A DNA stretch of 64,000 bases from a virus: IMG/VR virus record IMGVR_UViG_3300044970_001297, positions 28,789 to 92,788 of that record. One strand, given 5' to 3'. Made by a program: the position numbers and the translations under genes. The notes under the pieces were generated by a model, which saw only the letters and a program-made list of their open reading frames with translations, was not told where the DNA came from and did no database searches. Shown piece after piece: positions 1,024 through 26,214 of this stretch; positions within the stretch are counted from its first letter, which is position 1; each line of letters opens with the position of its first letter.

Positions 1024-1977
1024 TTATTCGTCGCTGAGAAGAAGTGCGAGTTCGTCTGAAACCTCGCCAGTCTCTGCGAAATCAGCAAGGATCTCTGCAA
1101 GACCTTCTTCGCCATATAGTTCGATTCCCTCTGCGAGGATCGCGTCGAGGATGTCAAAATCCTCTTCCTCTGCAACCTCTTGACGAGTTGCACTGGTTCC
1201 TGTGGTTCCATAGGTTGCGCTGGAGCCAGTTGGACGACCAGAGCCTAGGTTTGTCTTGCGACTCTTTGGAGCCTTTGAGGTTGTAGTACCACCAGAACCA
1301 AATGTTCCGCTGCCCAATGCTCTTGCTAGGTCGTATCCACTCTTCATGCCAGAGAATCTACCTTGATTCCAATACTCAGCACCAGCCTCTGCAACCTCTT
1401 GACGAGTTGCATTGGTTCCTGTGGTTCCATAGGTTGCACTGGAGCCAGTTGGACGACCAGAGCCTAGGTTTGTCTTGCGACCACCCTTTGGACCCTTTCC
1501 AAGGGTGTTGCTTCCACTGAATGTCTTTCCAGCATTCAATGCCTTTGCTATGTCATATCCACTCTTCATGCCAGAGAACTCACCTGTATTCCATGATGCT
1601 TCGTCGAGGATTGCCAACGCTTCCTCAATGTCGGCTTCTGTGATCGCACCCCTCTTGGCTGCTGTTCCGACAGATGCCTTAGCAGAAGACGATCCCTTGC
1701 CACCCTTGACGCTTGTTCTGTTGGATGAGGCAAAGTTGCCGCGACCACCGCTCTTGGCAGCAGTAGTGAATGCGTTTGGACTTGGCTTTCCACCACCCAT
1801 CTGAGATGCAAGCCATTGAGCCAACTGCATGGCATTCATTGCACCACCGATTGATGAATGTCCCCATTGAATTCCAGATGTGCCAGAACCATCTGTTGCG
1901 GTTCCTGCTGTTGATGTGGAAACTGCCTCTTGGACAGATTCGATTAGTGATGCGTAGCCGTCGCGGTTGATTGCCAT
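1024..1977 (-). CDS. Gly/Ser/Thr-rich repeat protein with acidic C-terminal helix; probable prohead core/internal protein
   Basis: 317 aa; internal ~73-aa duplication; LIE, ITE, LDE, VAE sites; acidic tail DILDAILAEGIELYGEEGLAEIL. Confidence 0.75.
   Translation of the reverse strand: MAINRDGYASLIESVQEAVSTSTAGTATDGSGTSGIQWGHSSIGGAMNAMQLAQWLASQMGGGKPSPNAFTTAAKSGGRGNFASSNRTSVKGGKGSSSAKASVGTAAKRGAITEADIEEALAILDEASWNTGEFSGMKSGYDIAKALNAGKTFSGSNTLGKGPKGGRKTNLGSGRPTGSSATYGTTGTNATRQEVAEAGAEYWNQGRFSGMKSGYDLARALGSGTFGSGGTTTSKAPKSRKTNLGSGRPTGSSATYGTTGTSATRQEVAEEEDFDILDAILAEGIELYGEEGLAEILADFAETGEVSDELALLLSDE
1167..1610. repeat. Two-copy ~220-bp tandem duplication inside ORF 1024..1977
   Basis: 1167-1262 nearly identical to 1386-1481; TATCCACTCTTCATGCCAGAGAA repeated at ~1335 and ~1557. 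Confidence 0.9.
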
Positions 1978-2182: not shown

Positions 2183-3394
2183 TTACTTGGTCTTGAGTTT
2201 ACCAGTTCTCTTTAGATAGTTATAGAGTGGACGCATACCCTCTTGGTTGTTCTGTCCGAAGTCGCCGCTACGAGCGCGGTTTCTGAAATCACGCATTGCT
2301 GCCTGAGCCTCGCGCTTCTTGGAAATCTGGCTCTTTGTCATCTTTGGCTTCTTGCCCTGCAAGCGATTTGCCATTGCCTCGACCGAACCAGAACCTGTGT
2401 CTCTTGCCACTCCCCTATCGATATTCAGGTTGCGGAATGATGCGATGGCTTTGCTGCGCTGATTGGCAAGGTTTCCTGCCTTCTGAGTGTACTTTCCACT
2501 CTTGCCTATGAGACTTCCGCCACCCTTGACTGCCTCGGCAGATGCTCCACCCTTCATTGCCATTCTTGCAGCAACCTTGGATTGGAGTTCCGCTGCTGCT
2601 CTTGCGACCTTTGGATTTCCTGTGTCATATGCCTTACCTCTGAGGCGCATCAACTTCTTGTAGCCAGCCTCATCCAACTGCTCGGCTTCAGCAAGACCCT
2701 TTGCCTTCATAGCAGAGTGCTTGAGTGCGGCTCTTCCAAGAACTGCCGATGTTGCTCCACCAAACTTTTCCTTGTCCTTGTAGAACTTCTTCTTGAAGGA
2801 ACGCTGCATGAAGTCTGCGACTTCGCCTTTGATGGGCTTCCCTGAAACATTGTGCTTGCGAATGATTCGCATACGCTTTGCACTGACTCCCTCTGCAAGC
2901 CCAACATCTTCTTTGGTTAGAATAGCGGTAGCACGCTTGACTCCGCGCTTTCTATTTTTCATCTTTCGTTCTGCTTCATCTGAAAGGCCCGATCCCACCA
3001 TCTGGTTGTAAGCAGACAACTCACCATAATCTTTCATTGACTTGTTGATGTAGGAACCAAGAGTCTTCTTGTTCAACTCGTCCAGTTCTTCAACTTCCTC
3101 ATTCACACCCAACTCCTTCTCCTTCTTGGCAAGGTTCCAGGATCGTGCATACATGACTTCCTTCCACCTCTTGCCGTATTGCTTCTTGAAGGATGCCTTG
3201 ACCTTGGGATCGGATGCCCAATCCTCCATGCCAGGTGCTGCCTTCTCTTCGATTGTCTCCTCGCAGATCTGACGAGCCTTCTCTGTGAGGGAGTTGAGGT
3301 AGCCCTCTTGGAGAGCCTTTGCGCGGTCAGCATCCACTGGATCGACCACAGATGCGATTGTCTCGTTGAGTGCCTTGATATCTCTTGTACGCAT
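2183..3394 (-). CDS. Basic modular head internal protein / polyprotein
   Basis: 403 aa; LNE, LQE, LTE, IEE, VNE, LDE, LAE sites separating K/R-rich blocks; LDELNKKTLGSYINK motif typical of T4-like head proteins. Confidence 0.75.
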   Translation of the reverse strand: MRTRDIKALNETIASVVDPVDADRAKALQEGYLNSLTEKARQICEETIEEKAAPGMEDWASDPKVKASFKKQYGKRWKEVMYARSWNLAKKEKELGVNEEVEELDELNKKTLGSYINKSMKDYGELSAYNQMVGSGLSDEAERKMKNRKRGVKRATAILTKEDVGLAEGVSAKRMRIIRKHNVSGKPIKGEVADFMQRSFKKKFYKDKEKFGGATSAVLGRAALKHSAMKAKGLAEAEQLDEAGYKKLMRLRGKAYDTGNPKVARAAAELQSKVAARMAMKGGASAEAVKGGGSLIGKSGKYTQKAGNLANQRSKAIASFRNLNIDRGVARDTGSGSVEAMANRLQGKKPKMTKSQISKKREAQAAMRDFRNRARSGDFGQNNQEGMRPLYNYLKRTGKLKTK

Positions 3395-3406
3395 TTGTAT
3401 TTCCTT

Positions 3407-3655
3407 TTAGAACTTTCTACCTGTGATCATGTAATCGGTGTTGTCTTGTGGAGTGCCAAGTGTGTTCACGACGCCGCCAACCACGCGCTTCACGGCACGG
3501 CCAGCCTTCTTCAACTTGCGAAGCAACTTCTTTGCATCCTTTTCGTTTGGCTTTCTTACTTCCTGAATGTCCTCGGCGGGAACAAAGATGTTTGTATCCT
3601 TTGCCCTGCCCTGTGGAGTGATGGAGTTGAGGTGTTGTAGGAACTGATTGTTCAT
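3407..3655 (-). CDS. Small head internal protein with duplicated leader
   Basis: 82 aa; first 32 aa (MNNQFLQHLNSITPQGRAKDTNIFVPAEDIQE) nearly identical to the leader of 8609..9949. Confidence 0.75.
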   Translation of the reverse strand: MNNQFLQHLNSITPQGRAKDTNIFVPAEDIQEVRKPNEKDAKKLLRKLKKAGRAVKRVVGGVVNTLGTPQDNTDYMITGRKF

Positions 3656-3667
3656 GTTGGTTCTTTC

Positions 3668-4882
3668 TTAGTTTCGTGGAGACTTTATGCCTTGATCTCG
3701 CTTTCGCATTCCGCGAGCCATGAAATTCTGTCTTGCAGTCGTGATCTCTGCCTTGTCGTGATAACCGCCTCGCGCATGGATCGCAGGGTAACTTTTGAGT
3801 ATTTCATTGGAAGCACCACCACGGCGAAGGGTAGCGACTTTTCTTTTCAAGTCTGCTAGATCGTATTCTGGTCCGTGTCCAAACTTACGATAGGCTTTTC
3901 CTACCTTGGAGCGAGTTGCTTCATTGACTTTACGAGGAGACTTCTTGCCATCCTCCCTGCTTCTCGTTGCCTTTCTTGCAAAGCGATATGTTGCCATTGA
4001 AGCATCATGTGGATTATATGTTGGATCGCGCGGCTCATTGCGATTGAATCGCCCTTGGGCAGCAGCGGCTTTCTTCATCGTCTCTGCATCGGCACCACCG
4101 CGCTGAAGCATAGCCACCTCCCGCTTGAGTCTTGCCAAGTTCAATGCTTTGCTCTCATCAGAGCCGACCTTGTGCTTGCCATATACCTTGAGATACTTGG
4201 AGCGAGTTGCTTCCTTGAGTTGCTCCTCTGCATCCTTCTTGTTCTGCATCCAGAACTTTGCTTCTTCCTTGTCGCCCTTCTTTACTGCCTTGACGATCTC
4301 GCGTTTCGATCCCTTGATTGCCTTCTTGAGTTCACCCTTTGAGTGGACATAGGAACCCTCATCAAGATCCACATCTTCGAAGATCTTCTTGCCCTTGGCA
4401 TTTGCCTTATCCATGGCACCCTTGCTGAATCTTTCATATGCCTTGTCTGCTGCTGGTGTGGTGGGCTTGTCGGTGAAGAAGCCACGAATTGTCTGCTTTC
4501 TTGCTCCACCACGACGAAGACGGCTTGCAGACAACTTGGAAAGTTCCTTGTCATATGCATCGGCGGTTTCGCGAGAAGCCTTTCCACTCACATGTGCGCG
4601 GCGAAGCCTACGCATTCTCTTCACGCCTTCAGAGATGGACTCTTCGTTCGTCTCTTCCTGCTTCTTTTCGGCGTTCTTGTCTAAAGGAGCCTTTTTGCCC
4701 TTCTTTGCAAGCCAAGCCTTTCCAGCAGCCATGTTTTCTCTTCTAAGTTGTGCTTCTGTCTTGGAGAAAGGCACTCCTCTACGACGAGCCTCGTTCATCT
4801 CAGGATGATCGAAAAGTGTATCGGTATTCTCGTTGAGTGCCTTGGCGAGATAGAGCCTCTGCTGTAGATTTGGTGAGTTCAT
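3668..4882 (-). CDS. Basic modular head internal protein / polyprotein
   Basis: 404 aa; LNE, MNE, ISE, IFE, LDE, LKE, VNE sites; two ATRSK...LKRxVAxLxRGGA modules. Confidence 0.75.
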   Translation of the reverse strand: MNSPNLQQRLYLAKALNENTDTLFDHPEMNEARRRGVPFSKTEAQLRRENMAAGKAWLAKKGKKAPLDKNAEKKQEETNEESISEGVKRMRRLRRAHVSGKASRETADAYDKELSKLSASRLRRGGARKQTIRGFFTDKPTTPAADKAYERFSKGAMDKANAKGKKIFEDVDLDEGSYVHSKGELKKAIKGSKREIVKAVKKGDKEEAKFWMQNKKDAEEQLKEATRSKYLKVYGKHKVGSDESKALNLARLKREVAMLQRGGADAETMKKAAAAQGRFNRNEPRDPTYNPHDASMATYRFARKATRSREDGKKSPRKVNEATRSKVGKAYRKFGHGPEYDLADLKRKVATLRRGGASNEILKSYPAIHARGGYHDKAEITTARQNFMARGMRKRDQGIKSPRN

Positions 4883-4919: not shown

Positions 4920-4927
4920 TATTTATG
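4920..4927 (-). promoter_or_regulatory. T4-type late promoter (CATAAATA)
   Basis: Overlaps stop of upstream gene, ~40 nt before ATG 4882. Confidence 0.6.
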
Positions 4928-6317
4928 ATTTCCGCAAAGGTCGGATGACGAGCCGTGAACCAAGAACCCGCCTATGTTCAGGATCACTTTCTCTGGTCGT
5001 GGGTAAAAATGATGGAGTTCCCTTGCTCTTTGCGACTTTCGGTTCGTGTGGCAATGTATCGCTTGCCCATATGCGCTTTTCGGGAACATCATGTGCGGGA
5101 ACTTCCCCCTTCGCGGTGTGGTGGAAGACTCTACCCTTCATCTTTGGATCCTTGCGGAGCCTGTTCCACACGGATGCGCCACCAGGGCTTTGCAATCCAC
5201 TGCTCCAAAGGTTTCCCTTCTTCTTGGCAATGTGCTTGTATGCGAGTGCCGCAAGGGACTTACCGATTTTCTTTCTTGTGTGCAATCCATGAACTTCCGT
5301 ATGAATGACTTGATGCTCGTCTCCATGGGACACCGTGGACACCTCACCCGCGACATGACCAGTCTGATCATGGACGATGTAGTGAGTCTGAACCTTTGGA
5401 TCGTCCTTGTGTGTGCTTGTATGGAGTGTGTATCCCTTGGCTACTCTTCCCGATCTCTTCGTGGGATTGCCTGTTCTCTCCACGGTCTTTGCGAAGTTTC
5501 TTGCACTGAGCAATCCACCTCTCGGCTTTTCAAGGACATTTGCAATCTCAATGTCCTCCCCAATGAAATCAAGGAACGACATGTATCCTTCCTTGACGAG
5601 TGCCTTCTTCTTTGGCTTTGCTACCCGTGCCTGTTGCTTCTGTATCAGGCTAAAGTACTTCGGCTTGTTGATGTGCTTTGGCATGAGTTCATGGGCGAGT
5701 TCTGTGTCGCCAGATGCAACTGCCTTGCGAAGCCTTCCTGCCTTTGCCACGCTCATGTCTCCCTTGCGAAGCCTTGCAAGGACTTCGTGCCTTCGCATAT
5801 CTCCTTCATGCCTCTCTGCACCCATCTGATGGAAACTCACCGTTGCCTTGTGAACCTTGCCATCCTTGTCCAATATTCCACCGTACTTCTTCACATGCCC
5901 CTCTATTGCGGTCTTGACACCACCTTTTTTCATCTGATCCGATCCAAGACCGATGGTGATGTGCTTGTGTCCCTGTCTTGCGAGATGCGCCAGTTGATGG
6001 AATGGACTCACATGTTCCTTTTCGGTTGTGCGAAACTGCATTCCCTTGTGTTCCTTGGCAATGTTCCTGTGACCAGAACGAATGACGGAACGCTTTTGTC
6101 CATGCGTCAACGGATCATCTGCCGATTGCTTCGATGCGGCACCGATGCCATGGTAGAAGTGCGTATGACCCGTCGAGGCAGCATGTGCAGCGGCTTGCCT
6201 TGCCATCTCATGGTGTCCAACGGTGTATGGGCTGTAGGAGCCAGGAAGGAGGAATGCCTTGCCAGATGGCTTGGGCTTGCTTGCTTCATCAATGGGAACT
6301 ATGTGTATTGTTTTCAT
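4923..6317 (-). CDS. Cytidylyltransferase-like nucleotidyltransferase fused to C-terminal GNAT-like domain
   Basis: PGSYSPYTVGH (T/HxGH motif), DPLT, GSD and RLRKAVASGD match the T4-like phage cytidyltransferase family; C-terminal HTRKKIGKSLA...QSPGGASVW; start trimmed to MKTIH. Confidence 0.75.
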   Translation of the reverse strand: MKTIHIVPIDEASKPKPSGKAFLLPGSYSPYTVGHHEMARQAAAHAASTGHTHFYHGIGAASKQSADDPLTHGQKRSVIRSGHRNIAKEHKGMQFRTTEKEHVSPFHQLAHLARQGHKHITIGLGSDQMKKGGVKTAIEGHVKKYGGILDKDGKVHKATVSFHQMGAERHEGDMRRHEVLARLRKGDMSVAKAGRLRKAVASGDTELAHELMPKHINKPKYFSLIQKQQARVAKPKKKALVKEGYMSFLDFIGEDIEIANVLEKPRGGLLSARNFAKTVERTGNPTKRSGRVAKGYTLHTSTHKDDPKVQTHYIVHDQTGHVAGEVSTVSHGDEHQVIHTEVHGLHTRKKIGKSLAALAYKHIAKKKGNLWSSGLQSPGGASVWNRLRKDPKMKGRVFHHTAKGEVPAHDVPEKRIWASDTLPHEPKVAKSKGTPSFLPTTRESDPEHRRVLGSRLVIRPLRKS

Positions 6318-6433: not shown

Positions 6434-7240
6434 TCAAACCGTCCACGGTTTGATTTCGATTGGTTCCATCTTTGAATGACTTGATCGGTTTGCATTTGAC
6501 CATGCTTTTGCTTCCTTGGCAGTCTTGGCAACATGAAGTTCCTTGCTTCTCTGCCAATCATAGACTGTCCAACCTCGTTTGCCTTGCTTTTCAATGGAAT
6601 GATTTCCCTTCACCCATCTGCGATGACCTAGTCCACGGCTATGAATCCACCCATCCTTGGCTTTGCTACCGTATGCTTCTTGAATCTTCTTTCGAACCTT
6701 GAATGCGGATGGTGCTTCATGCGTCGAGGGATCTATGATCGGATCACGGGCATAGTCGCTGTGCTTTCGCGAGTCCTTGGTTCCAAGATCGTCAGACTTG
6801 AACTTTCTTCGTGCGGACTTGCTGAGATTTGCGATTGGGAACTTCACAACATGAATGTTTTCGTAGTCGCGCTCACCAACCTCATGCTTGCGGCGATTGA
6901 CTGCATGGGCTGTCTGATCCACCCAATACCCTACGCCATGATGGTTGGTCACGAATGCGTGTCCCTGCGTGTGTTCCTTCTGGCTTGGGTAGTTGGTGCG
7001 TCCCTTTGGACTTCGTGGCTTGAGTCCACCCTTGACGATCTTCGCGGCTCTTGCGGCTGTGGTCGCATGGTAGACATACTTCTGCTTTTCTGAGTTAGGC
7101 ATCTCATGGAAGTCATGTGCATACGACCAGTTCTCATTGAGTTCGTTTCCATGTCCATCATGAATGAAGTGCTTTGGATATGCACGGGCAATCATCCTGA
7201 CTGCCGTTGCCTCGACTATGAACTCCCTGTAAGTCTTCAT
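6434..7240 (-). CDS. Capsid-targeted ADP-ribosyltransferase-like protein
   Basis: N-terminus MKTYREFIVE (T4 CTS MKTYQEFIAE); YVYHATTAARAAKIVKGGLKP...HAFVT...VVKF resembles the Tpt1/DarT-type ART fold. Confidence 0.65.
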   Translation of the reverse strand: MKTYREFIVEATAVRMIARAYPKHFIHDGHGNELNENWSYAHDFHEMPNSEKQKYVYHATTAARAAKIVKGGLKPRSPKGRTNYPSQKEHTQGHAFVTNHHGVGYWVDQTAHAVNRRKHEVGERDYENIHVVKFPIANLSKSARRKFKSDDLGTKDSRKHSDYARDPIIDPSTHEAPSAFKVRKKIQEAYGSKAKDGWIHSRGLGHRRWVKGNHSIEKQGKRGWTVYDWQRSKELHVAKTAKEAKAWSNANRSSHSKMEPIEIKPWTV

Positions 7241-7243
7241 GTA

Positions 7244-7612
7244 TTATTCCTCGTAGAAGCCTTCGTTGCTTCCGCCATACAACCGAATAAGACGACCAGC
7301 GAGTGCATTGGCTTCGTCCTCGCATGGTGATCCCGTGTCTCCGTCGAGTTCATCACCACATTCATCCTGCATCTGATGGACGAGTTCGTGTGCAATGGAA
7401 CGGCAGATGTCGAATGTGGCTCTGTTGCCACTCACAACACGAATGCTCTTGTCTGCTGGACAATACGATGCCGTGGTCATGCCATTCTCACGCACCTGAA
7501 CCAAACGAACATTCGGTGTGTTTGCAAGACCAAGTTCCTGTGCGGCAAAGTCAACGAAGTTTTGAATCGTCTGCTCGTTTGCCTCTGCGATGAAACGATT
7601 GAATGACTTCAT
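7244..7612 (-). CDS. Capsid-targeted zinc metallopeptidase-like protein
   Basis: N-terminus MKSFNRFIAE; IAHELVHQMQ (HExxH) plus downstream EDEANALAG. Confidence 0.75.
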   Translation of the reverse strand: MKSFNRFIAEANEQTIQNFVDFAAQELGLANTPNVRLVQVRENGMTTASYCPADKSIRVVSGNRATFDICRSIAHELVHQMQDECGDELDGDTGSPCEDEANALAGRLIRLYGGSNEGFYEE

Positions 7613-8295
7613 TTCTTCTTTGCCTTGAGTATGAGTTGAGTTCCAAATGCCCTGGTTGCCTTGGGCGACGAATAATCGTGCATTCGGATTCCCTTGGATG
7701 CTGCCTTGCGTCTGACTCCCCCACTACCAGAAGTCCATATGTCAGCGGGATTCATCTTGGATGCCTGTCCGATGTCCTTTATGTCTCCATCCCCTTTTCT
7801 ACTAACGACCGCACGGACATGCTTCTTGGTCTTGGGATCCTTCATCAGGTGCTGCCATACTGATGCACCACCCATACTCTGTTGAATGCCGCTATGAATG
7901 GTATAGCCGTGCTTTCCATGAAGATGCTTGTATGCTGCCACGGCAAGCGAATGCCCTATCTTCTTCTTCGAATGATGCGGGTGGATGGCTAGAAATCCTA
8001 CCCGCAAGTGCTTACTCGTTTCCGGATTATCACTCACATGATCATTTTCTATGTGTCCAACCACTTTCTTGCTTTTATCGTGGGTTATGAAGAAGTCATT
8101 ACCATTGTGGTTTCGATGGATAGAATATTCTTTATGAATCTTACCAAGTTTATGCATACGAAGCGAAGGAAGGCTTCGCGCGGCTTCAATATCCGAATGG
8201 AACTCATCATGAATACCTTTCCAGTCTTTGCGGTTTAATCTACTAATATTTGGTTCTAGTTGTATGTCCTCAAGTAGTTGGCGATAGGTCTTCAT
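7609..8295 (-). CDS. Capsid-targeted GNAT-like protein
   Basis: N-terminus MKTYRQLLE; IHPHHSKKKIGHSLA...QQSMGGASVW; paralogous to C-terminus of 4923..6317. Confidence 0.65.
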   Translation of the reverse strand: MKTYRQLLEDIQLEPNISRLNRKDWKGIHDEFHSDIEAARSLPSLRMHKLGKIHKEYSIHRNHNGNDFFITHDKSKKVVGHIENDHVSDNPETSKHLRVGFLAIHPHHSKKKIGHSLAVAAYKHLHGKHGYTIHSGIQQSMGGASVWQHLMKDPKTKKHVRAVVSRKGDGDIKDIGQASKMNPADIWTSGSGGVRRKAASKGIRMHDYSSPKATRAFGTQLILKAKKK

Positions 8296-8606
8296 TTATT
8301 TCCCTTTGCCATGTGGTGTGCAGTATGCATATATGCATTATGAATGGCATCATTCATCGTCTTATGAGTTCCATGTATGGTATTTAGACCAATGTCCTTA
8401 CCATTCACACGAATGTTCCCTGCCTGATATCCCCAACCACCCATGCGACTCCATCCCTTGACCACATGACCGACGATGCCACGATGCGAGAACATGGATG
8501 TGGTGTCATTGATCTTGCGAATGTTCGCACCATGACCAGATTGCTTGATCTTCACATATCTTTCATTGGAAGATGCTTCAGTGAGAAACTGACTGAATGA
8601 CTTCAT
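8292..8606 (-). CDS. Capsid-targeted small His-rich internal protein
   Basis: N-terminus MKSFSQFLTE. Confidence 0.7.
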   Translation of the reverse strand: MKSFSQFLTEASSNERYVKIKQSGHGANIRKINDTTSMFSHRGIVGHVVKGWSRMGGWGYQAGNIRVNGKDIGLNTIHGTHKTMNDAIHNAYMHTAHHMAKGNK

Positions 8607-8608: not shown

Positions 8609-9949
8609 TCAATCGTCCTCGTAATCGTCCTTCTCGTTCTTGTGTTCCTTCTCAATGTCACGAAGGACATTCTTTGGAACTGCCATGCCAATCCTCTTGT
8701 GGCGACGGGCAACCAAACGGGCAATCATGCTCTTGGTCGATTCTCTCTTTTCCTCTTCCTTTTCCTCTTCTTCGGATATCGAATTTGGAGTATTGGAAAG
8801 GTAGTCTTTCACCGAAGAAATGTAATCTGCTGATTTCGTGATCTTGGACTGAACCCATCCCTCAAGTTGGGAATCAGACTTGAGCATCGACATGATGTCG
8901 TTGGCATTTGCAATGATGGACTTGAGTTCACCCATTGCCATTCCACCCTCATCATCGACTTCCTTCTGCTCATGAAGATTGCCGTGGTATGTGTGGAAAG
9001 ACATCTGAATGGCATTGGAACCTTCCGCATGTGAACCCATCAGTTTAGGAACATTATGCTTTTGAAGAATACCCTGAATGCTTTGATGAAGTTTCGCTGA
9101 ATTCTTCGCCCCGATTCCCCCGATTCCCTTAGCATGTCCACCAGTACGGGCAAGTATCTTGCCGTGCTTTGCCTTGAGTTCACGGATTGCACCCTTTGGA
9201 AGATCATACAACCAATCTTCCATGGATGCCTTCACTGCACCTTCATATACTGGTATTGGATTCTTCCTACCCTTACCGACGAACTTCTTCAACCCATCAG
9301 CATCTCGCTTGTGCTTGTTGCTATAGGTGAGCATGAGAAGTTCAGGAACTGCGGGAATGGCATACTGTGCATACTTGGGGGCTTCCGTCATTGGAAACAA
9401 ACGCCCAGTCTTGCCAGCGCGTGATGCGGCACGGGAACGCATTCCAACCTCGCGATAGTACCTTTGTCTGCCCTCTGGACTCAAGCCACGAAGTCTCTTC
9501 TGTAGTTTGCCAGAGAAACTCTTGATCTCACCCTTGGTGTACTTGTCGTATGGATCCTGTCCTGGTGGAAGTATGGGCTTTGCTCTCCCCGAACGACCAC
9601 GATTTGGATCATTGGTCGAGACTGCTTCCTTGAGTGGAATGCCTGTCCTTGCGGAGAAGTCTCCAAGTGCGCGGTCGAGTTTCTTTCCATACCGCTTGGC
9701 ATTGCTGCTCATCTTCTTGCCCCAACGCTCCCTTGCGGCTTCATAGTCCTTGAGGCTTCCGCTACCCTCTCTCCAGTTGCGGGATGCATGTGCAAGTTTT
9801 CTTGCTGCCTTCCTTGGCATCCCCTTGAGGTTCTGTCCGACATCGGGAACGGCTTCGCTGATGTCCTTCGCGGGAACAAAGATGGATGTATCCTTGGCTC
9901 TACCCTGAGGTGTGATTGAGTTTAGGTGGTTTAGGAATTGGTTGCTCAT
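8609..9949 (-). CDS. Modular head internal polyprotein
   Basis: Start trimmed to MSNQFLNHL; ISE, LKE, MTE, VYE, LHE, ISE sites; EGGMAMGELKSI...WVQSKITKSADYI domain recurrent in T4-like phages. Confidence 0.75.
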   Translation of the reverse strand: MSNQFLNHLNSITPQGRAKDTSIFVPAKDISEAVPDVGQNLKGMPRKAARKLAHASRNWREGSGSLKDYEAARERWGKKMSSNAKRYGKKLDRALGDFSARTGIPLKEAVSTNDPNRGRSGRAKPILPPGQDPYDKYTKGEIKSFSGKLQKRLRGLSPEGRQRYYREVGMRSRAASRAGKTGRLFPMTEAPKYAQYAIPAVPELLMLTYSNKHKRDADGLKKFVGKGRKNPIPVYEGAVKASMEDWLYDLPKGAIRELKAKHGKILARTGGHAKGIGGIGAKNSAKLHQSIQGILQKHNVPKLMGSHAEGSNAIQMSFHTYHGNLHEQKEVDDEGGMAMGELKSIIANANDIMSMLKSDSQLEGWVQSKITKSADYISSVKDYLSNTPNSISEEEEKEEEKRESTKSMIARLVARRHKRIGMAVPKNVLRDIEKEHKNEKDDYEDD

Positions 9950-9953
9950 GTCT

Positions 9954-10535
9954 CTATGCCTTTGCTGTTGTTTTCCTTGGGTGCAAGTACAGGTGGTGCT
10001 TGTATCCTGTCCTTCGACCATATGCCAGTTTCTCATGCTGTTCGGGATCGTATTGCTGCATCTTGGGCTTCTTGCCCCATTGCTCCTCTGCAAACTTCAC
10101 CCTCTTCTTTGCCGCGAGTTGCCGCCAGATGTGGCGACCACCCTTTGTCTGTGCGTCATCGCTTCTTATCGTGTGTCCCGTCTTGTCTGCCAACATCATG
10201 TATGTCTTTGCCATCAGCCCTCGCACCAATGCCTTCTTTCCCCTGTGGCTTGGATGCAAGGAAGGACCACGCGGGATGATTTGCTTCTTGTGCTTGTTGT
10301 ATGGAACATGACCAACCGATTCGCCATTGTGCATGATGTGGACTATTCCATAACCACTCTTGGCCCCTCGGTGTCGTATCTCGTATGGACCGACCTTGCC
10401 CATGCGCTTGGTTCCATGAGCAGACTCTGGATAATGCTTAGAATCCCCGTAGTCAAGGACGGGTTCTTCGTTCAATAGACCAAGTTCACGAAGTGCTGCC
10501 TCTGCCAAGATCTTTCGTGCTTCTGTGTATCTCAT
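9954..10535 (-). CDS. GNAT-like protein with duplicated leader
   Basis: Leader MRYTEARKILAEAALRELGLLNE; LHPSHRGK...SDDAQTKGGRHIW. Confidence 0.65.
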   Translation of the reverse strand: MRYTEARKILAEAALRELGLLNEEPVLDYGDSKHYPESAHGTKRMGKVGPYEIRHRGAKSGYGIVHIMHNGESVGHVPYNKHKKQIIPRGPSLHPSHRGKKALVRGLMAKTYMMLADKTGHTIRSDDAQTKGGRHIWRQLAAKKRVKFAEEQWGKKPKMQQYDPEQHEKLAYGRRTGYKHHLYLHPRKTTAKA

Positions 10536-10616
10536 TGTCCTAGTTCCCTTAAAGTGTTGAAAGTGAAAGTTCCATTTGATGTTCCCACCAAATGGAACGG
10601 TGAGTTTCTTCTTTTC

Positions 10617-10913
10617 TTAGTTCTTTGGTTTGAGAACCCTTTTCGTCTCTTGACCAGCAACATTGATGTTCCTGTATGCCACACCCTTTCGCAACTTCAC
10701 CTTCTTGCCACCCTTGCCAATGAGGTTGGGTGATGCTCGCTCCCTATCGTCTCGCATCAATTCGCGATCAGCGTTCTGACGCCTTGCAAATGCGGTGTTG
10801 ATTGCCCTGCGGTTCTCTAAATCTCGTCCTGGTGTGGTATAGTCTTCATCCAATAGACCAAGTTCAAGAAGTGCTGCCTCTGCCAAGATCTGTCGTGCTT
10901 CTGAGTATCTCAT
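10617..10913 (-). CDS. Small basic protein with duplicated leader
   Basis: Leader MRYSEARQILAEAALLELGLLDE nearly identical to that of 9954..10535. Confidence 0.7.
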   Translation of the reverse strand: MRYSEARQILAEAALLELGLLDEDYTTPGRDLENRRAINTAFARRQNADRELMRDDRERASPNLIGKGGKKVKLRKGVAYRNINVAGQETKRVLKPKN

Positions 10914-11008
10914 TTTTCCATCTCCTTATGAAAGTTTAGGTAGTTGATGTGGGTTTATAGGTTTACAAATACCTTTATATGTAGAAAAAATATGGGTTGA
11001 CCGTGAAA

Positions 11009-11814: not shown

Positions 11815-12132
11815 CTATCTAGGAATCTTTGCCCATTCCTCTTCGTACTTCCATCCATCCGAAAGGAAGAGTCGCCACATCACCCTTGCCTGTTCCAGAT
11901 TCCATCTGGTGCTTAGACCAGTGGTCACCATGCGGTTTCCTAGAAGTCGGACTTGCTTCGGCCCATCGTATGAATAGCCATCTTCGTACTTCGTATACGC
12001 GGCCATCATGATGAGAGGGGTTTCGTAATCCTTGTTTTCGATGATCAGGAAGAGCAGCCCCTGATCCCCCTTGGTGAGCCAGTGGGATTCGATTGCCTGT
12101 TCGTCTTCGGTGAGGTGGGTTGCGATGGTCAT
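11815..12132 (-). CDS. Hypothetical protein
   Basis: 105 aa; GGAGGAAACCCACAATG start context; C-terminal ARVMWRLFLSDGW. Confidence 0.7.
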   Translation of the reverse strand: MTIATHLTEDEQAIESHWLTKGDQGLLFLIIENKDYETPLIMMAAYTKYEDGYSYDGPKQVRLLGNRMVTTGLSTRWNLEQARVMWRLFLSDGWKYEEEWAKIPR

Positions 12133-12152
12133 TGTGGGTTTCCTCCTTTGGT

Positions 12153-14648
12153 TCAGGCGACGATGTCCATGAGGCGGTTGATGAACATGCGGTTCGTCTC
12201 GTCGCGCTTCATGGCAGCGATGAAGGCACGGGTCGCAGCGACCTTCCTGTTCTTCAACTTCTCAAACTTCGCATCCTCGTTCTTCGCGATCTCCTCGGCG
12301 CGACGGCGATCCTGCACCTGGACGAAGAAGTAGGAAGCGTATCCCGAATTCGGGTTGTTGATCGCGACGAACTTCTCGGCATCGAACTTCTCACGGAGGA
12401 CCTTCGTCTTCTCCAAGCGGGTGGTGTAATCGTCCTTGTCGGCAGTCGCGAGACGATCAAAGGTCGAGCAGTACGAGAGGCTCTGCATCATCATGATGCC
12501 GACCACATCGCATCCCGTGGCATCCTTGAACATGTTGACCACCGCGGTGTTGCCGTGACCCGTATGACGGCGACCGTTGGCGGCATCGATCATCACCTTG
12601 GAGACATGGCGGTAGTGACCACCGGTGTTCTTGCTCTTGCTGAGATCCTCAGGAGTGTTGACGCGGTTGATGACGCTCATGCCTTCGCCATCGGTGAGGG
12701 TGATGAAGGTCACCTTGGTGTTGCTGGACTTTCGGAAGTTGTTGACGATGTCACGCATGGCAAGGATCGACTCGTCAAGCGGGGTCGTGCCAAGCATCAG
12801 CGAGTCAACGCACTCGACCTGAGAGTAGCGACCGCTGACCATCTTGGCGAGGAGCGAGAGGCGACCCATCACCCGCGCGAACTTCTTGTTGTCCATGTTC
12901 TGGTTGTAGACCTGAACAAGGCTGAACGCCTCAAAGGTTGCCGTGTATCCCTTCGCAACGGTGCCAGCGGGGAGGTTGCAGACATGCTCGGTGAAGAGGC
13001 GACGCTCGTCAAGCGCACACCAATTCACGCGGGACGATCCACCGTAGCGAAGCGCGTCGGCGCGGGTCGGCTTCTTGCCGTCCTGATCCGCAGGGAAATG
13101 CTTGTTGTTCTTCGCGAAGAGGTCATCCGCGAACTTGCTGTACATGCTGTTGAAGAAGTAGACCTCGGCAGGGATTCCGACGCGACGGCAGAACATCAGG
13201 AGAGCCGCGAGTTGGCTCACGGTGTCGTTGAGCATGACGCTCATCGAACCCGACCAGTCGAGGAGGATCACGATGCCGTGGTTCTTCTCGTCGCGCTTGA
13301 TGGTCATGCGCTCAAAGATGTCCTCGCTGAACTTGTACTTGGCAAGGTTGCGGCAGGAGATGCGACCCGTCTTCGCGCTCGACTCGCGAGCGTAGTTGCG
13401 AGCCGCACGACGCACTTCGAAGCGACGGCACATCTGGTCGACCGCACGACGGTTCTCCGCGACGAGTTCCTTGAAGGCTTCCGCTGCCGCCTTGTCGAGG
13501 TGTTCCGACACGCTGCCCGTGATCTTGTGGTACTTCGACGGAACGCTCTGGTTCATCAGGTCGATGAACTCGTCGCTGCTCACGACGATCTTCGAAGTGT
13601 CGATCTGCGGGACGCGGATGGCGTGTTCGACAACCTGGTTGTTGACGAACTTCTTCATGGCCTTCTCCATCTCGCCAACGGTCGAAGCCGCATCGGGAGC
13701 GTACTGCTGCGCCTCGACCTCTTCCTTGCCGCCATCGGTCTCGTCTGAGGCTTCGGCAGTCGAGCCATCGTCCTGAGCCGATTCGTCGCCGTCGTTGCCA
13801 CTGGACGAATCCTCGCGCTCGCCGTTGCCCTGCTCGTCGCTACGCTCGCTCTTGTCCTCGGCACCCGCTTCGCGAGTCTCGGACGAATCGGTCTTGTCGT
13901 TGCCGTCCTCGCGGGAAGCAGCACCTTCGCGCTTCTCCTCGCCGTTGTCGCCGTCCTGCTCGGACGAAGCCGAACCGCTCTGCTGCTTGCCGTCGCTCTT
14001 GGTCTGGTTGGTGCGGCTTCCCTCGCCCTGCTCCTCCTCGCGCTCGCGCTTCTGGTTCTTCGCGAACTCGTAGACCTCGGCAGCGATGGCGGTGACATCA
14101 TCGAAGGTACGCGCCGCGTTGATCGCGTCCACGAACTTCATCTCCTCCGCGCTGAAGGGAACCTGAACGCCAAGGTGGATGCCCATCTTGAAGTGGATGT
14201 TCAGGCGGTCGATGGTCGAGAGGGAAGCGAGGTCGCGACCCTTGAGGTTGAAGGCATCCATGGTGCTGAGGGCCTGGTAGCCGTTGATGAAGTCGCGGCG
14301 AAGACCAGGAAACTCGCGCTTGATCATGCGCTCAATGCGAGCGTCTTCGATCACATTGATGTAGTCCTTCGCGACCATGGCATTCTTGGTGCCGCCGATG
14401 CGGATGCTGGCTTCCTTCCACGCATCGGCAGGAGTGTACTTGGCATGGCCGACCTCATGGCCGACAAGGAAGTCATAGACGCTCTGGTCCTTGTTGTCCC
14501 ACTGCGGCAGAACAAGCCGACGCGAGTCGAGTTCGAAGTAGGCAGTCTCGCACTCATGCGAGTGTTCGACGGTGAGGTTCTCCGACGCGAGCAGACGCGC
14601 CATGATGGAATTGCGAGCGGTGTTTGCGGTGTTCATGGTAGTAGCCAT
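12153..14648 (-). CDS. CobT-like protein: N-terminal HExxH peptidase-like domain, acidic linker, VWA domain
   Basis: GHEVGHA, NVIEDARIE, MIDAS DWSGSM, TPL, LTDGE; GC-rich codons; start trimmed to MATTMN. Confidence 0.85.
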   Translation of the reverse strand: MATTMNTANTARNSIMARLLASENLTVEHSHECETAYFELDSRRLVLPQWDNKDQSVYDFLVGHEVGHAKYTPADAWKEASIRIGGTKNAMVAKDYINVIEDARIERMIKREFPGLRRDFINGYQALSTMDAFNLKGRDLASLSTIDRLNIHFKMGIHLGVQVPFSAEEMKFVDAINAARTFDDVTAIAAEVYEFAKNQKREREEEQGEGSRTNQTKSDGKQQSGSASSEQDGDNGEEKREGAASREDGNDKTDSSETREAGAEDKSERSDEQGNGEREDSSSGNDGDESAQDDGSTAEASDETDGGKEEVEAQQYAPDAASTVGEMEKAMKKFVNNQVVEHAIRVPQIDTSKIVVSSDEFIDLMNQSVPSKYHKITGSVSEHLDKAAAEAFKELVAENRRAVDQMCRRFEVRRAARNYARESSAKTGRISCRNLAKYKFSEDIFERMTIKRDEKNHGIVILLDWSGSMSVMLNDTVSQLAALLMFCRRVGIPAEVYFFNSMYSKFADDLFAKNNKHFPADQDGKKPTRADALRYGGSSRVNWCALDERRLFTEHVCNLPAGTVAKGYTATFEAFSLVQVYNQNMDNKKFARVMGRLSLLAKMVSGRYSQVECVDSLMLGTTPLDESILAMRDIVNNFRKSSNTKVTFITLTDGEGMSVINRVNTPEDLSKSKNTGGHYRHVSKVMIDAANGRRHTGHGNTAVVNMFKDATGCDVVGIMMMQSLSYCSTFDRLATADKDDYTTRLEKTKVLREKFDAEKFVAINNPNSGYASYFFVQVQDRRRAEEIAKNEDAKFEKLKNRKVAATRAFIAAMKRDETNRMFINRLMDIVA

Positions 14649-14656
14649 ATGCTGTA

Positions 14657-14685
14657 AGTATACATTACATCGGCACTTAGGACAA
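14657..14685 (-). promoter_or_regulatory. Sigma70-like early promoter of cobT-like gene
   Basis: TTGTCC-N17-TATACT, 8 nt before ATG. Confidence 0.7.
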
Positions 14686-14721
14686 CCCACTTGAGCGTAG
14701 GGAATGAAATACGGGCAAGAT

Positions 14722-19810: not shown

Positions 19811-20185
19811 TCATGCGAGATCTCCGTACTGAACTCCCGTCTGCGGATCGCTGTCTGAGGGAGTGTTGCAGCACGATGCACTGCGTCGAGCCTGTGCTGC
19901 GATTCGGACATTCTGTCGTTCGATCACGCGCTGAAGAGCCGCGTTCCGCTCGCTGAGATTGCGAACTTCTTCCTGAAGATCACGGATCTTCTTCTCGTCG
20001 CCCTCACACGCCTCGACTTCGTTCTTCCACCCAGTTGCCTTGCGAACCGCATCGGCGGCAACACGCTCAAGACGCGCATTGTCCTCGCGCAGTTGAATGA
20101 TGATCTTCTCGCGGTTCTGAATCGTCTCCGCGAGGGACTCGACCACGGTGCCGCACACATCGCTGAAAGAGGGAATGTTGCTCAT
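19811..20185 (-). CDS. Hypothetical coiled-coil protein
   Basis: Start trimmed to MSNIPS (GGAGTTTTCATCATG). Confidence 0.7.
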   Translation of the reverse strand: MSNIPSFSDVCGTVVESLAETIQNREKIIIQLREDNARLERVAADAVRKATGWKNEVEACEGDEKKIRDLQEEVRNLSERNAALQRVIERQNVRIAAQARRSASCCNTPSDSDPQTGVQYGDLA

Positions 20186-20254
20186 GATGAAAACTCCGAA
20201 TGTGAAATTTAGAACTGCGAAATGGGCGGTCGCATCGCCCACCGATGGCGTAGG

Positions 20255-21526
20255 TCAGAACGGGACAGTCTGATCCGACTTCTCGTCCGACTTCGCGCCC
20301 TTCTGCGCGTCGGTCGAGGTGTCCGCGATCTTGTTGTAGAACGAGTAGAACGACTCGCGGGTGTTCTCATCGAACCGCGCAAGCGCGAGGTTCATCGCCG
20401 TCTTGAGATCACCGAAGATCACATAGCCTTCGGCAATCGCGACGAGACGGCGAGTCGAGACGAGATCCTCGACCGCACCCGCCTCATACGCCTTGCGGAC
20501 GGAGTCCGACCAACGCGAGAGGTTCTCCGACAGAGTGGTAGCGACCGCAGCATCGACACCAAGCGCGTCGAACGCCTTGCTGAGGATCGCGATTTCCGTC
20601 GCGACGGGCGGGTACGGCTGATCGACGGTGATCTTGAACCGCTCAAGCAGGGCCTCGTTCTGCACACGGGTGCCGACGAAGCGACCATCGTCGCTACCCT
20701 TGCCCTTGGTGTTCGCGGTCGCGAACACGGTGAAGCCGCGCTCGGGCTTGATGAAGCGACCGACCTTCTTGAGGAAGACGCCCTTGCCCTCAAGCACGGG
20801 CTGAAGGCACATCGTCTTGAACGACCCAAGGTCGAGTTCGTCAAGCAGGAGAACCGCACCGCGCTTCATGGCTTCGACCACGGGACCATCGACCCACACG
20901 GTGTTGCCGTTGATGAGACGGAAACCGCCAAGGAGATCGTCCTCATCCGTCTCTTCGGTGATGTTGACGCGGAAGAACTCGCGACCCTCCTTCGCGCAAA
21001 TCTGCTCGACCATCAGGGTCTTGCCGTTGCCCGAAAGGCCGTTGATCCACGCGGGGAAGAACACCTTCGACTTGACGATGGAGCGCAGGGTCGAGAAGTG
21101 ACCCCACGGCACATAGATCGGATTCGTCGCGGGGACGAACTTCTCGACCTCGGTGACGAGAGCCGCGACCGAAGTGGGCGCGGGTGCCGACTCGACAACC
21201 GCAGCGACCGCCTTGGCGCGGACCTGAGGTGCGACGGGCGCAGACGCAGCGCAAGCAGCGACGGCTTCGGGGATGCTGTAGAGGCCGCGACCCGCACGAC
21301 GCTTCGCGTCGTTCGTGACCCACACGGGCGCACCGCTCATGCCGCACTTCTCAGCAGCAGCGAGAACCTGAGTACGAGTGTAGTTGTGTTCGCCGTCGCC
21401 GTTCCCGTAGAGCGAGACGATGGTGTCCACGAAACGACGCTGACGAGTCTGAAGGTTGCCGTACATGGTGACTCCGTTGTTGGTGTTGCGGATGGGCTTG
21501 GTGCTGTTGGTGATCTTCATCGACAT
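20255..21526 (-). CDS. cobS: CobS-like (MoxR-type) AAA+ ATPase
   Basis: Walker A GLSGNGKT, Walker B VLLLDE, ATANTKGKGSDDGRF, NEALLERF, STRRL; typical T4-like phage CobS. Confidence 0.9.
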   Translation of the reverse strand: MSMKITNSTKPIRNTNNGVTMYGNLQTRQRRFVDTIVSLYGNGDGEHNYTRTQVLAAAEKCGMSGAPVWVTNDAKRRAGRGLYSIPEAVAACAASAPVAPQVRAKAVAAVVESAPAPTSVAALVTEVEKFVPATNPIYVPWGHFSTLRSIVKSKVFFPAWINGLSGNGKTLMVEQICAKEGREFFRVNITEETDEDDLLGGFRLINGNTVWVDGPVVEAMKRGAVLLLDELDLGSFKTMCLQPVLEGKGVFLKKVGRFIKPERGFTVFATANTKGKGSDDGRFVGTRVQNEALLERFKITVDQPYPPVATEIAILSKAFDALGVDAAVATTLSENLSRWSDSVRKAYEAGAVEDLVSTRRLVAIAEGYVIFGDLKTAMNLALARFDENTRESFYSFYNKIADTSTDAQKGAKSDEKSDQTVPF

Positions 21527-21532
21527 GCCATA

Positions 21533-21561
21533 AGTATCTGATACTTTGATTCGTCTGTCTA
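21533..21561 (-). promoter_or_regulatory. Sigma70-like early promoter of cobS
   Basis: TAGACA-N17-GATACT, 6 nt before ATG. Confidence 0.65.
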
Positions 21562-21600
21562 CGGGGTCGGACGAAAATCCGCGAAAAAAGTCCAGATTTC

Positions 21601-21629
21601 TGTAAGTCTTGGTCTGGTAAGGACTTACG
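21601..21629. promoter_or_regulatory. 11-7-11 palindromic site, copy 2
   Basis: TGTAAGTCTTG-GTCTGGT-AAGGACTTACG. Confidence 0.65.
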
Positions 21630-21647
21630 GAGAAACAATCCGTGGTT

Positions 21648-22073
21648 TTAGTCGAGGTTTTCGCGCACCTTGCGCCAATAACTCAGAGTTGAGGGCTTTT
21701 TCCAACCTTTTGGACCGCCATTGTGTACGCGGGAGAGGGTTTCGAATGACCAATTCGGTGCGTAGCGAGTCCAGTACGCGATGACGATCTTCCTCGCGTA
21801 GGCTTCGTTCTTGCAGTCTGAGTACTTGCCACCGATGGAAGTATCGAAATCAACCGCGTCCTTCCAATACGAATAGTGAATTTGCAGAGGACCGATTGCC
21901 TTGCCGCCGTCACCGACAGCGTTTGCGGGATCCTTCGATCCGCCCGTCTCAACTTTCTGAACCGCGTCGAGGATGTTGTCGAAGTCGAAGTTTGCGGGAG
22001 GAGGAACCGCGACTGCCGATGCGGTCACGATGAAGGCGAGGATGGTGGGGAGAGTGAAGTTCGTATTCTTCAT
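21648..22073 (-). CDS. Secreted invertebrate-type (destabilase-like) lysozyme
   Basis: Signal peptide ending ASAVA; VETGG, GPLQIHYSYWKDA, YSDC, SRVHNGGPKG, TLSYW. Confidence 0.8.
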   Translation of the reverse strand: MKNTNFTLPTILAFIVTASAVAVPPPANFDFDNILDAVQKVETGGSKDPANAVGDGGKAIGPLQIHYSYWKDAVDFDTSIGGKYSDCKNEAYARKIVIAYWTRYAPNWSFETLSRVHNGGPKGWKKPSTLSYWRKVRENLD

Positions 22074-24865: not shown

Positions 24866-24883
24866 GCAGTCTCTCCATAAAAA

Positions 24884-24976
24884 GGGAACGGCAGGGGGAG
24901 TTACCCCCTGCCGTCGTTCTAGTCTAGATCTAGACTTCTAGTATCGGAGCATCCGCTGACCCCGACTGCCGTTCCC
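24884..24976 (-). ncRNA. Structured RNA / terminator with alternative long-range stem
   Basis: GGGAACGGCAG...CTGCCGTTCCC closing stem, three internal hairpins, followed by TTTTT. Confidence 0.5.
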
Positions 24977-25004
24977 ACGCGGACAATAATTATATTCTGT
25001 CAGT

Positions 25005-25298
25005 TCAAAGCAGGAAGCGATTGCCCTGGGCATCGAAGCCGTAGGTGCGGGTGCCGGGGTGCGTGTCGATCATGCTGTAGACCGTCTCGCCACGGCTGTT
25101 GGTGTTCGACTCCACGATCCAGTTGCCGTGCGTCTCGACGCGCTCACGGATGCTGGAGATCATCGCACGGAAGTTCTTCACGCCGAACTTGCTGTTGGCC
25201 TGAGCCGAAGTGAGCGACTTGCCCGAAGCGAGGTAGTTGATGACCTGACGGGTCTTGGTGAGCGAACGGGTCGAACGGGTCTTGGTGGCAGTAGCCAT
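25005..25298 (-). CDS. Winged-helix HTH DNA-binding protein
   Basis: VINYLASGKSLTSAQANSKFGVKNFRAMISSIRE; strongly biased GC-rich codons. Confidence 0.75.
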   Translation of the reverse strand: MATATKTRSTRSLTKTRQVINYLASGKSLTSAQANSKFGVKNFRAMISSIRERVETHGNWIVESNTNSRGETVYSMIDTHPGTRTYGFDAQGNRFLL

Positions 25299-25384
25299 AC
25301 TCTACACTCCTAAACATTGACTGCTTCACTTTGAAAGAGGAGTTCGCACCGCAGTCCCGTGCGTTCCTCAACTGTTGTGCTACA

Positions 25385-25412
25385 AGTATATCTCTGAATC
25401 GTCTGCTGTCAA
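25385..25412 (-). promoter_or_regulatory. Sigma70-like promoter
   Basis: TTGACA-N16-TATACT. Confidence 0.75.
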
Positions 25413-25469
25413 TATCTGTCGAACGCGAATCGAAAAGAATCTTACTTTGCTTCTATTTGATTCTGAATC

Positions 25470-25679
25470 TTACGCGCTCTTGGCAGGAGAGAGATATTGT
25501 TCAAAATCCTCTCCGTAGATCTCGACTCGCTTTGCTGGACTCAGAGATTGAAGTTCAGCAACCTTGTCGATTCCATATTTCGCAACCCGCTCATCGGCAG
25601 TCATGCGAAACAGGTTCTTGTCAAACACATGCTTTCCTTGAAAGCAACTCTGCACCCATCGTCTAAAAAACTCACTCAT
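25470..25679 (-). CDS. Hypothetical protein
   Basis: Start trimmed to MSEFFRR (GGAGG RBS). Confidence 0.6.
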   Translation of the reverse strand: MSEFFRRWVQSCFQGKHVFDKNLFRMTADERVAKYGIDKVAELQSLSPAKRVEIYGEDFEQYLSPAKSA

Positions 25680-25680
25680 C

Positions 25681-26214
25681 TCATGCACCTCCACCTACTA
25701 TGAACTTCTTGCCCTTCAACCGCGTGTTGAAGTCGCCAACATTGGTGCTGATGCCAGCACCACCGATACGCGCTCTCTTTCCCTTCGGAACCCAATCCGA
25801 CTTGCCAGTTCCGTGGAACACGCTGCCGTGCTTCTTGGAAACAGAGAGAACGGTGTCTTGACCAAACTGCTCCCCATGCTTCTTGAGATCCCTAAGAAGA
25901 GTAGCATGATCTCCTACGCTACCCCGTTTGGGTGCGGGAAGTTGACCAGAATGAACCATGAAGGTCTTCTCCTTCACCTTCTTCTTCTCTCCATTGTGGT
26001 CTTCGATGTACTCGCCCTTGACTGGAACAGGAGTGTATCCATGCTGCTTGAGGCTTGCCCTGAGTGCCTTCGTCCTCTTGTTGTTCTCAGCGGGAGAAAG
26101 ATTCCCACGGCTTGCTGATATGAAACCCACCATGTGACCACCTTCGATGTGACCATGTAGACGGGAAAGGGAACGCCTTGCTGCCTCTGAAATGAACTCT
26201 CTATATGACTTCAT
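25681..26214 (-). CDS. Capsid-targeted DUF3293-like protein
   Basis: N-terminus MKSYREFISE; ISASRG...EN..R...L...GY..V.G.Y.E...EKTF...FGQDTVL. Confidence 0.75.
   Translation of the reverse strand: MKSYREFISEAARRSLSRLHGHIEGGHMVGFISASRGNLSPAENNKRTKALRASLKQHGYTPVPVKGEYIEDHNGEKKKVKEKTFMVHSGQLPAPKRGSVGDHATLLRDLKKHGEQFGQDTVLSVSKKHGSVFHGTGKSDWVPKGKRARIGGAGISTNVGDFNTRLKGKKFIVGGGA

Follow-up and report, generated by a model that had tools for sequence, protein, structure and literature searches.

Modular basic proteins with joints resembling protease sites in the internal-protein array of an uncultured T4-like phage

The final 64 kb of a 92.8-kb viral record (IMG/VR record IMGVR_UViG_3300044970_001297, CheckV completeness 53%), hereafter the window, begin with a compact array of co-oriented minus-strand genes that takes up the first 11 kb. 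Three long open reading frames (ORFs) of this array, named A, B and C, are the subject here, together with the short motif [LIVM]-x-E that punctuates them and is called a site below. An earlier note on this DNA had read A and B as polyproteins of shuffled basic peptides separated by head-protease sites, a proposal that is now supported in part and has been borne out in every sequence-level test run. Both are real genes on the minus strand at the coordinates given here, where they are listed with ORF C, a minimal family member and their modules (M), for which molecular masses and isoelectric points (pI) were calculated.

2183-3394, minus strand: ORF A, 403 residues, net charge +38; leader of 11 residues with a site at its end, acidic/helical stretch rich in sites, then M2, M18, M1 and M0
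2687-2890, minus strand: module M1 of A, residues 169-236, 7.5 kDa, pI 10.7
2186-2668, minus strand: module M0 of A, residues 243-403, 17.4 kDa, pI 11.1, with a [RK]GGA core
3407-3655, minus strand: minimal family member, 82 residues; nothing but the class-C leader (32 residues, site at its end) and M5, the conserved basic tail module at the C terminus
3668-4882, minus strand: ORF B, 404 residues, net charge +44; a leader and five basic modules, with sites at 31, 85, 169/175, 224 and 321
4790-4882, minus strand: leader of B, residues 1-31, with sites after 18 and 31; residues 1-27 near-invariant among collinear homologues
4628-4789, minus strand: module M29 of B, residues 32-85, predicted product 6.1 kDa, pI 9.9
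4376-4627, minus strand: module M3 of B, residues 86-169, of a family of 75, with a [RK]GGA core, occurring in all three gene classes
4358-4375, minus strand: six-residue acidic linker of B, residues 170-175, between two adjacent sites
4211-4357, minus strand: module M8 of B, residues 176-224, predicted product 5.6 kDa; AlphaFold confidence peaks here (~65-78)
3920-4210, minus strand: module M4 of B, copy 1, residues 225-321, 10.9 kDa, pI 10.4
3671-3919, minus strand: module M4 of B, copy 2, diverged, residues 322-404, 9.3 kDa, pI 10.8
8609-9949, minus strand: ORF C, 446 residues; class-C leader 1-32, M28 33-108, M14 109-189, a 47-residue piece and a near-neutral C-terminal part of 210 residues

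Sites in ORF B lie after residues 18, 31, 85, 169, 175, 224 and 321, and cutting the protein in silico at those followed by A, G or S yields an acidic leader of 31 residues and, after it, five basic products that are 49-97 residues long and have pI 9.6-10.8. In a charge scan, acidic patches, defined as 9-residue windows with a net charge of -3 or lower, were found in B at sites 31, 85, 169/175 and 224 and in A at 45-50, 99-106, 168 and 236/242. The alternation of acidic linkers and basic blocks described in the earlier note was thus recovered at most joints, joint B321 being without a patch. Block lengths of 50-100 residues, also stated there, describe B well (49-97 residues) and A only partly, since A consists of basic blocks of 68 and 161 residues and a weakly basic N-terminal part of 138 residues. 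The same layout had been ascribed to ORF C, where it is confined to residues 1-236 and does not extend to the final 210 residues, which are near neutral (pI 6.9). This C-terminal part of C (8612-9241, minus strand) differs from the basic modules. Some homologues of C carry the JGI label '3-methyladenine DNA glycosylase Tag', for which Pfam gave no support (best match PIN_8, E value 0.03-0.1).

Two paralogous pairs had been proposed among the basic blocks. The ATRSK-type pair within B, residues 222-318 versus 319-404, was confirmed with an alignment z score of 18.8 against shuffles. The second pair, residues 161-250 of A and 79-180 of B, is present but weaker (z = 7.2), being mostly limited to the first ~20 residues, with a profile-profile probability of 15%. 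A DNA repeat (D10) in addition connects the leader of B to that of A.

More than 100 metagenomic homologues, all unnamed, were retrieved for each of A, B and C, and the ORFs gave no megablast or tblastn match in 50,697 phage records. Homologues match B only piecewise and not in its order, with match ends at its sites, and residues 83-175, 220-321 and 318-403 recur separately, elsewhere in the chain and in reversed order. When 203 metagenomic proteins of the family were cut at every [LIVM]-x-E and the resulting 969 pieces of at least 25 residues were clustered, 96 module families in 150 architectures were obtained, and 84% of the piece-to-piece matches covered at least 70% of both pieces. The proteins fall into three gene classes, each with a fixed leader, and the ends are fixed as M0 in class A and M5 in class C. 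No module is more frequent than M0, which occurs in 120 proteins, almost always in last place. The class-C leader is always N-terminal and the M5 tail always C-terminal, with only 29 matching clusters in a search of 1.84 billion representatives. Inner modules (M1, M3, M4, M10, M11, M14 and others) change class, and up to 17 different modules can precede and up to 16 can follow them. What lies between two sites acts as a separate homology unit that is reordered, copied and exchanged among genes, and to judge from these comparisons such pieces are the units of evolution. Six modules (M0, M3, M4, M10, M22 and M23) have a [RK]GGA core in common, counted 279 times against 15 in shuffles, and weak profile-profile kinship was seen for M0-M4 (86%), M3-M4 (69%) and M4-M10 (51%). 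A SAP/HeH-type DNA-binding domain, suggested by this core, found no Pfam or PHROG match. The family is essentially cysteine-free. Module identities of 70-90% across unrelated contexts argue for specific functions rather than mere charge, and the pattern of presence and absence looks like that of accessory cargo and would be compatible with counter-defence of the kind performed by T4 IPI*.

The borders of these units coincide with the sites. Of the match breakpoints internal to both proteins, 32% of the starts and 29% of the ends lie no more than two residues from a site, versus 11% for random positions, with peaks exactly at P3 and P1, figures that come from related sequences, which are not independent samples, and that carry no formal probability. 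Across 372 distinct joint contexts P3 is L in 62%, I in 17%, V in 12% and M in 9%, P1 is E, and P1' is A in 34% and G in 32% (66% jointly, 21% expected), where the background frequencies are 13% and 8%; acidic residues prevail at P4-P7 and basic ones at P3'-P8'. Alignments with a mean column identity of 36-37% show little or no variation at the joint residues, namely I83, E85, G86, I167, E169, L173, E175 and G176 in B and E30, G31, L166, E168, L240, E242 and A243 in A. I167, E169, L173, E175 and G176 of B are kept in at least 90% of the homologues, and L166 and E168, just before M1 of A, are invariant in 25 homologues. By the published rule, T4 gp21 cleaves behind L/I-x-E, originally noted as a Glu-Ala bond (PMC9026906), and the joint logo agrees with it.

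The three ORFs together hold 13 copies of the four-residue motif [LIVM]-x-E-[AG], whereas rates in the remaining proteins of the phage or in T4 predict 2.1-2.9 (Poisson P from 4e-7 to 1e-5). The density is 1.08 per 100 residues versus 0.17 in 74 other ORFs of the record, a sixfold enrichment. Calibration on T4 gave a mean of 0.23 per 100 residues, and the known substrates gp22 (1.49), gp21 (1.42) and gp23 (0.96) had the top densities among longer T4 proteins. The residue after [LIVM]-x-E is A or G in 50% of the cases in the three ORFs versus 13% elsewhere in the record. If A, B and C were cytoplasmic DNA- or RNA-binding proteins, serving host takeover or genome compaction and never entering the capsid, such an enrichment would be a by-product of an alternating acidic and basic, Ala/Gly-rich composition. 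The A+G content of the three ORFs is indeed somewhat raised, 19% versus 15%, and the three proteins are without a T4-type tag. Composition, however, predicts A or G after only ~19% of the sites, as against the 50% observed and the 66% at module joints; moreover, the breakpoints coincide with the motif and the genes sit in a co-oriented, tagged array that is conserved in relatives. A purely cytoplasmic role is accordingly very improbable, and the joints look like protease sites rather than chance occurrences.

Structure prediction bears on a different alternative. AlphaFold2 with alignments returned mean predicted local distance difference test (pLDDT) values of 46.6 for B and 52.5 for A and a predicted template modelling score (pTM) of 0.21 for both, and the models are low-confidence helix strings in which no domain appears to span the joints. 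One fold across the sites, named in the earlier note as the outcome that would speak against cutting, was therefore not seen in the models. Whole ORFs and single modules gave nothing above noise against Pfam and PHROG, PDB sequence searches gave E values of 0.16 or worse, and the ESM Atlas yielded only sub-threshold look-alikes with poor models (pTM 0.18-0.20). Mostly helical models in which some joints lie inside predicted helices would also suit long, flexible, multi-module basic internal proteins that are left uncut between modules or lose the leader only, with the joints as recombination seams or as hinges between helical units. T4 IPIII, which is cut at its tag only, offers a precedent (PMC9026906), and the joint DNA of the two M4 copies (3905-3930 versus 4196-4221, 92% identical over 26 nucleotides) is the best-conserved stretch between them. 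Against an uncut chain, the joints keep just a pattern of 3-4 residues while codons and flanks vary, which is too short for a recombination substrate, and an invariant Glu with a preference for Ala or Gly at P1' fits a protease rule and not a hinge. The motif density equals that of the multiply cut T4 gp22, and free permutation is easier to explain if the modules act separately. We consider this alternative unlikely. Recombination nevertheless contributes to the pattern, as DNA identity at some joints and leaders indicates recent duplication or gene conversion.

The genomic setting is that of internal proteins. By its gene content the phage is an uncultured T4-like myovirus: from 34 kb on, PHROG profiles match the gp2 DNA end protector, gp4 of head closure, the tail-tube cap and baseplate gp53, gp5, gp6, gp7 and gp8, with gp48 in the same block, and eleven tRNA genes lie at 17.9-30.3 kb. 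The best cultured matches of gp6 are Methylophilales phage Melnitz and Pelagibacter myophages, at only ~35% identity. The gene order in T4 is ipII-ipIII-e ... tRNA genes ... ipI-57-1-3-2-4 / 53-5-6-7, and that of the window resembles its outline ipII-ipIII ... tRNA ... ipI ... 2-4-53-5. In both T4 IPII and T4 IPIII the first ten residues, MKTYQEFIAE, are the capsid targeting sequence and precede an Ala. Those of IPIII suffice for loading, and gp21 removes the tag (PMC9026906, PMC7411985). A Glu-to-Asp change at the cut site in T4 abolishes processing and leaves targeting intact. In the array, the ORF at 6434-7240 starts with MKTYREFIVE followed by Ala, differing from the T4 tag in two of ten residues, and further neighbours carry tags or common leaders.

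6434-7240, minus strand: tagged neighbour gene whose start nearly copies the capsid targeting sequence of T4 IPII/IPIII, a mark of the internal-protein locus
7244-7612, 7609-8295 and 8292-8606, minus strand: three tagged neighbours with T4-type tags of 9-10 residues ending in [LIVM]-x-E; DNA repeat D4
9954-10913, minus strand: two genes with a common 12-residue leader (a site, then Ala); DNA repeat D3

A [LIVM]-x-E ending at residues 9-18 was found in 11 of the 14 array ORFs versus 14 of 84 other ORFs of the record, and two further array ORFs have a common 32-residue leader with a site at its end. The leaders of A, B and C measure 11, 18/31 and 32 residues, none of them being an IPII/IPIII-type tag. 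Leader cassettes recur at the DNA level, 3567-3657 versus 9861-9951 with 82% identity and 10465-10547 versus 10843-10925 with 88%, and the ORFs at 9954-10535 and 10617-10913 have their first 24 residues in common. Since the DNA similarity ends at or shortly past the leader, one leader is joined to unrelated cargo. Taken together, tags and gene order identify the array as an internal-protein locus. Its genes are without Pfam or PHROG names except for one cytidylyltransferase-like and a weak GNAT-like signal; the T4 late promoter TATAAATA was not found in the array, the window as a whole having two matches, both elsewhere.

The cytidylyltransferase-like signal belongs to the tagged protein at 4923-6317 (minus strand), in which a leader of 11 residues closes with a site before Ala and the N-terminal half is similar to phrog_395 (E value 5e-8). 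Its C-terminal domain is paralogous to the ORFs at 7609-8295 (E value 1e-19) and 9954-10535, which have weak GNAT-like matches, and orthologues with tags of their own occur in the relative G001 introduced below and in phage Melnitz (14914-16866 of MZ577098.1). At the other end, 1024-1977 (minus strand) encodes a Gly/Ser/Thr-rich protein of 317 residues whose leader of 13 residues closes with a site and whose tail is very acidic; the gene has a 219-nucleotide tandem duplication (1167-1262 versus 1386-1481, 98% identical) and is conserved in G001 (L006, 11652-12638). Just upstream of the window, record G000:C1 has strongly basic ORFs flanking the array, at 24877-25890 (plus strand), 27335-28687 (minus strand) and 28691-29158 (minus strand), with net charges of +36, +19 and +22, respectively. 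Beyond the array, G+C content rises to 59% at 12001-14000 and 20001-22000 from ~47-50% in the rest of the window, and these stretches, which may be host-acquired, carry a phrog_459 'peptidase' of 845 residues and a cobS-like ATPase (phrog_249). In the former (12153-14690) Pfam shows no protease domain.

A head protease was found in relatives. Peptidase_S77 scored above the family cut-off in three large relatives, with a T4 positive control at an E value of 4e-113. One of them, G001 (156.6 kb, 86% complete, Peptidase_S77 E value 3e-39), has a syntenic array that comprises genes of classes A, B and C, including a full-length homologue of A, as well as the cytidylyltransferase gene and a gene with a near-T4 tag. 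Its head block consists of the portal, the protease (215 residues; L028, 1357-2004, minus strand), a very acidic scaffold of 374 residues and the capsid protein, in which a site followed by Ala lies near residue 48. The extremely acidic N-terminal ~70 residues of the G001 scaffold (L032, 2958-4082, minus strand) may be a counter-charge partner of basic cargo.

Such a region could bind basic chains that only help to build the prohead core, in the manner of T4 gp22, gp67 and gp68, and that are cut with their pieces expelled before DNA packaging, none being retained or injected. The multi-site layout resembles that of gp22, whose fragments mostly leave the head (PMC7411985). Core proteins are, however, conserved and essential, whereas gene content and architecture vary here among phages (150 architectures), as for accessory cargo. 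Pieces as basic as these (pI 10-11) are expected to stay on the DNA, and the genes sit in the internal-protein array, outside the head gene block. A role restricted to core assembly is for these reasons decidedly unlikely.

The reading we prefer, with a probability of roughly 0.65 on the sequence data, is that A, B and the first half of C are capsid-loaded polyproteins cut into basic peptides of ~5-17 kDa. Each protein would be made as one chain, an N-terminal leader followed by several basic modules of 50-160 residues, and would enter the prohead core alongside the T4-type tagged internal proteins encoded nearby. A gp21-type head protease would then cleave behind the Glu of [LIVM]-x-E, for the most part where Ala or Gly follows. 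Acidic linkers and leader would be degraded or leave the head, and the basic peptides (~5-17 kDa, pI 10-11) would remain on the packaged DNA and probably be ejected with it; they might act as condensers of the DNA or as injected effectors. Electrostatic capture by the very acidic scaffold might be the route by which A, B and C are loaded. We propose that module order and copy number are unconstrained because each module acts as a free peptide, from which free shuffling among related phages would follow. Of this reading, the sequences show module structure, shuffling, the enriched and conserved joint motif, the internal-protein context and the protease in relatives; we infer loading, cutting, retention and peptide function.

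Several observations weigh against it. A, B and C have leaders of other than the T4 type, so that loading is only assumed. The 53%-complete record of the window ends short of the head genes and gave no Peptidase_S77 match, and a cognate gp21 for this phage rests on relatives because the record is a fragment without the protease gene. Some sites lie inside predicted helices, for example the B224 joint, and at 92% DNA identity the conservation of the M4 joint could partly reflect recombination or gene conversion. The motif [LIVM]-x-E is short, with T4 thymidine kinase as a false positive of high density, and to this comes the dependence among the sequences behind the breakpoint counts.

The T4 internal proteins are the textbook case of phage proteins that are packed with the DNA and injected, with one product per gene. 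To our knowledge only IPI has a known job among them, IPI* blocking GmrSD. By analogy, the modules might form a combinatorial arsenal of injected effectors, such as inhibitors of restriction or defence, with one leader loading many peptides. New combinations could then arise by cassette shuffling at the protease joints, which would make the system a phage counterpart of viral polyprotein expression that serves to diversify counter-defence. Both ideas are speculative and are put forward as tentative possibilities.

A polyprotein form, if true, would allow many peptides to be loaded cheaply through one address tag and the peptide set to be reshuffled between phages at protease joints. It would bear on the charge balance of packaged DNA, on the diversification of counter-defence cargo that acts early, and on the engineering of T4-type heads to deliver several peptides per construct. 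The 96 module families, none of them in Pfam, PHROGs or PDB, make a defined candidate set for DNA-binding and anti-defence assays.

Among known systems, T4 IPI, IPII and IPIII, along with Alt, are nearest in setting, as capsid-targeted proteins processed by gp21. The neighbourhood, a tRNA cluster with genes 2/4/53/5, is the same, as is L/I-x-E before Ala as the motif for cutting; the window neighbours carry almost the same 10-residue tag, and the mature products are small and basic, predicted as 5-17 kDa here and ~8.5-21 kDa in T4. T4 internal proteins stay in the head and are ejected (PMC9026906, PMC7411985). In T4, however, one mature protein is made per gene with one cut after the tag, whereas three to six products per chain are predicted here; the A, B and C leaders are not the T4 tag, and there is no sequence similarity, BLASTP against the three sequences of IPI, IPII and IPIII giving E values of 0.15 or worse. 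T4 gp22, gp67 and gp68 likewise have several L/I-x-E sites cut by gp21 in the prohead, with a similar motif density in gp22. These are acidic, conserved assembly proteins encoded in the head block between the portal and capsid genes, in contrast to the window ORFs, which are strongly basic (+38, +44), consist of hypervariable modules and lie outside that block. In G001 the true scaffold is a separate, very acidic protein of 374 residues, distinct from the A- and B-type genes.

In the giant phages phiKZ, 201phi2-1 and SPN3US, a gp21-related protease cleaves many head-internal proteins, among them inner-body and ejection proteins, behind the Glu of a short motif; propeptides can hold several sites, and the products are DNA-associated and ejected (PMC9026906, PMC7411985). 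These proteins differ in the motif, which is S/A-x-E, in losing a long propeptide so that one mature body is left, and in showing no homology, and they have not been described as chains of interchangeable small basic modules. The cultured marine methylophage Melnitz, the best match of the window gp6 among the phage records searched (35% identity), has a gp21-type protease and, in Melnitz-3 (MZ577098.1, 13272-19275), a co-oriented array with short tags ending in [LIVM]-x-E, including a cytidylyltransferase-like gene. Its array also encodes a 130-residue protein with a net charge of +29, and in two of its proteins [LIVM]-x-E-[AG] occurs three times. Unlike the window, the phage lacks homologues of A, B and C, and its site-rich proteins are less basic and without a clear chain of basic modules; it would be a possible laboratory model. 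The literature searched, which did not cover all journals, does not describe internal proteins of the polyprotein type for T4-like phages. As far as the sequences tell, A, B and C would belong to a known kind, the T4 internal proteins and gp21 substrates, to which the window adds a quantitative catalogue of modules.

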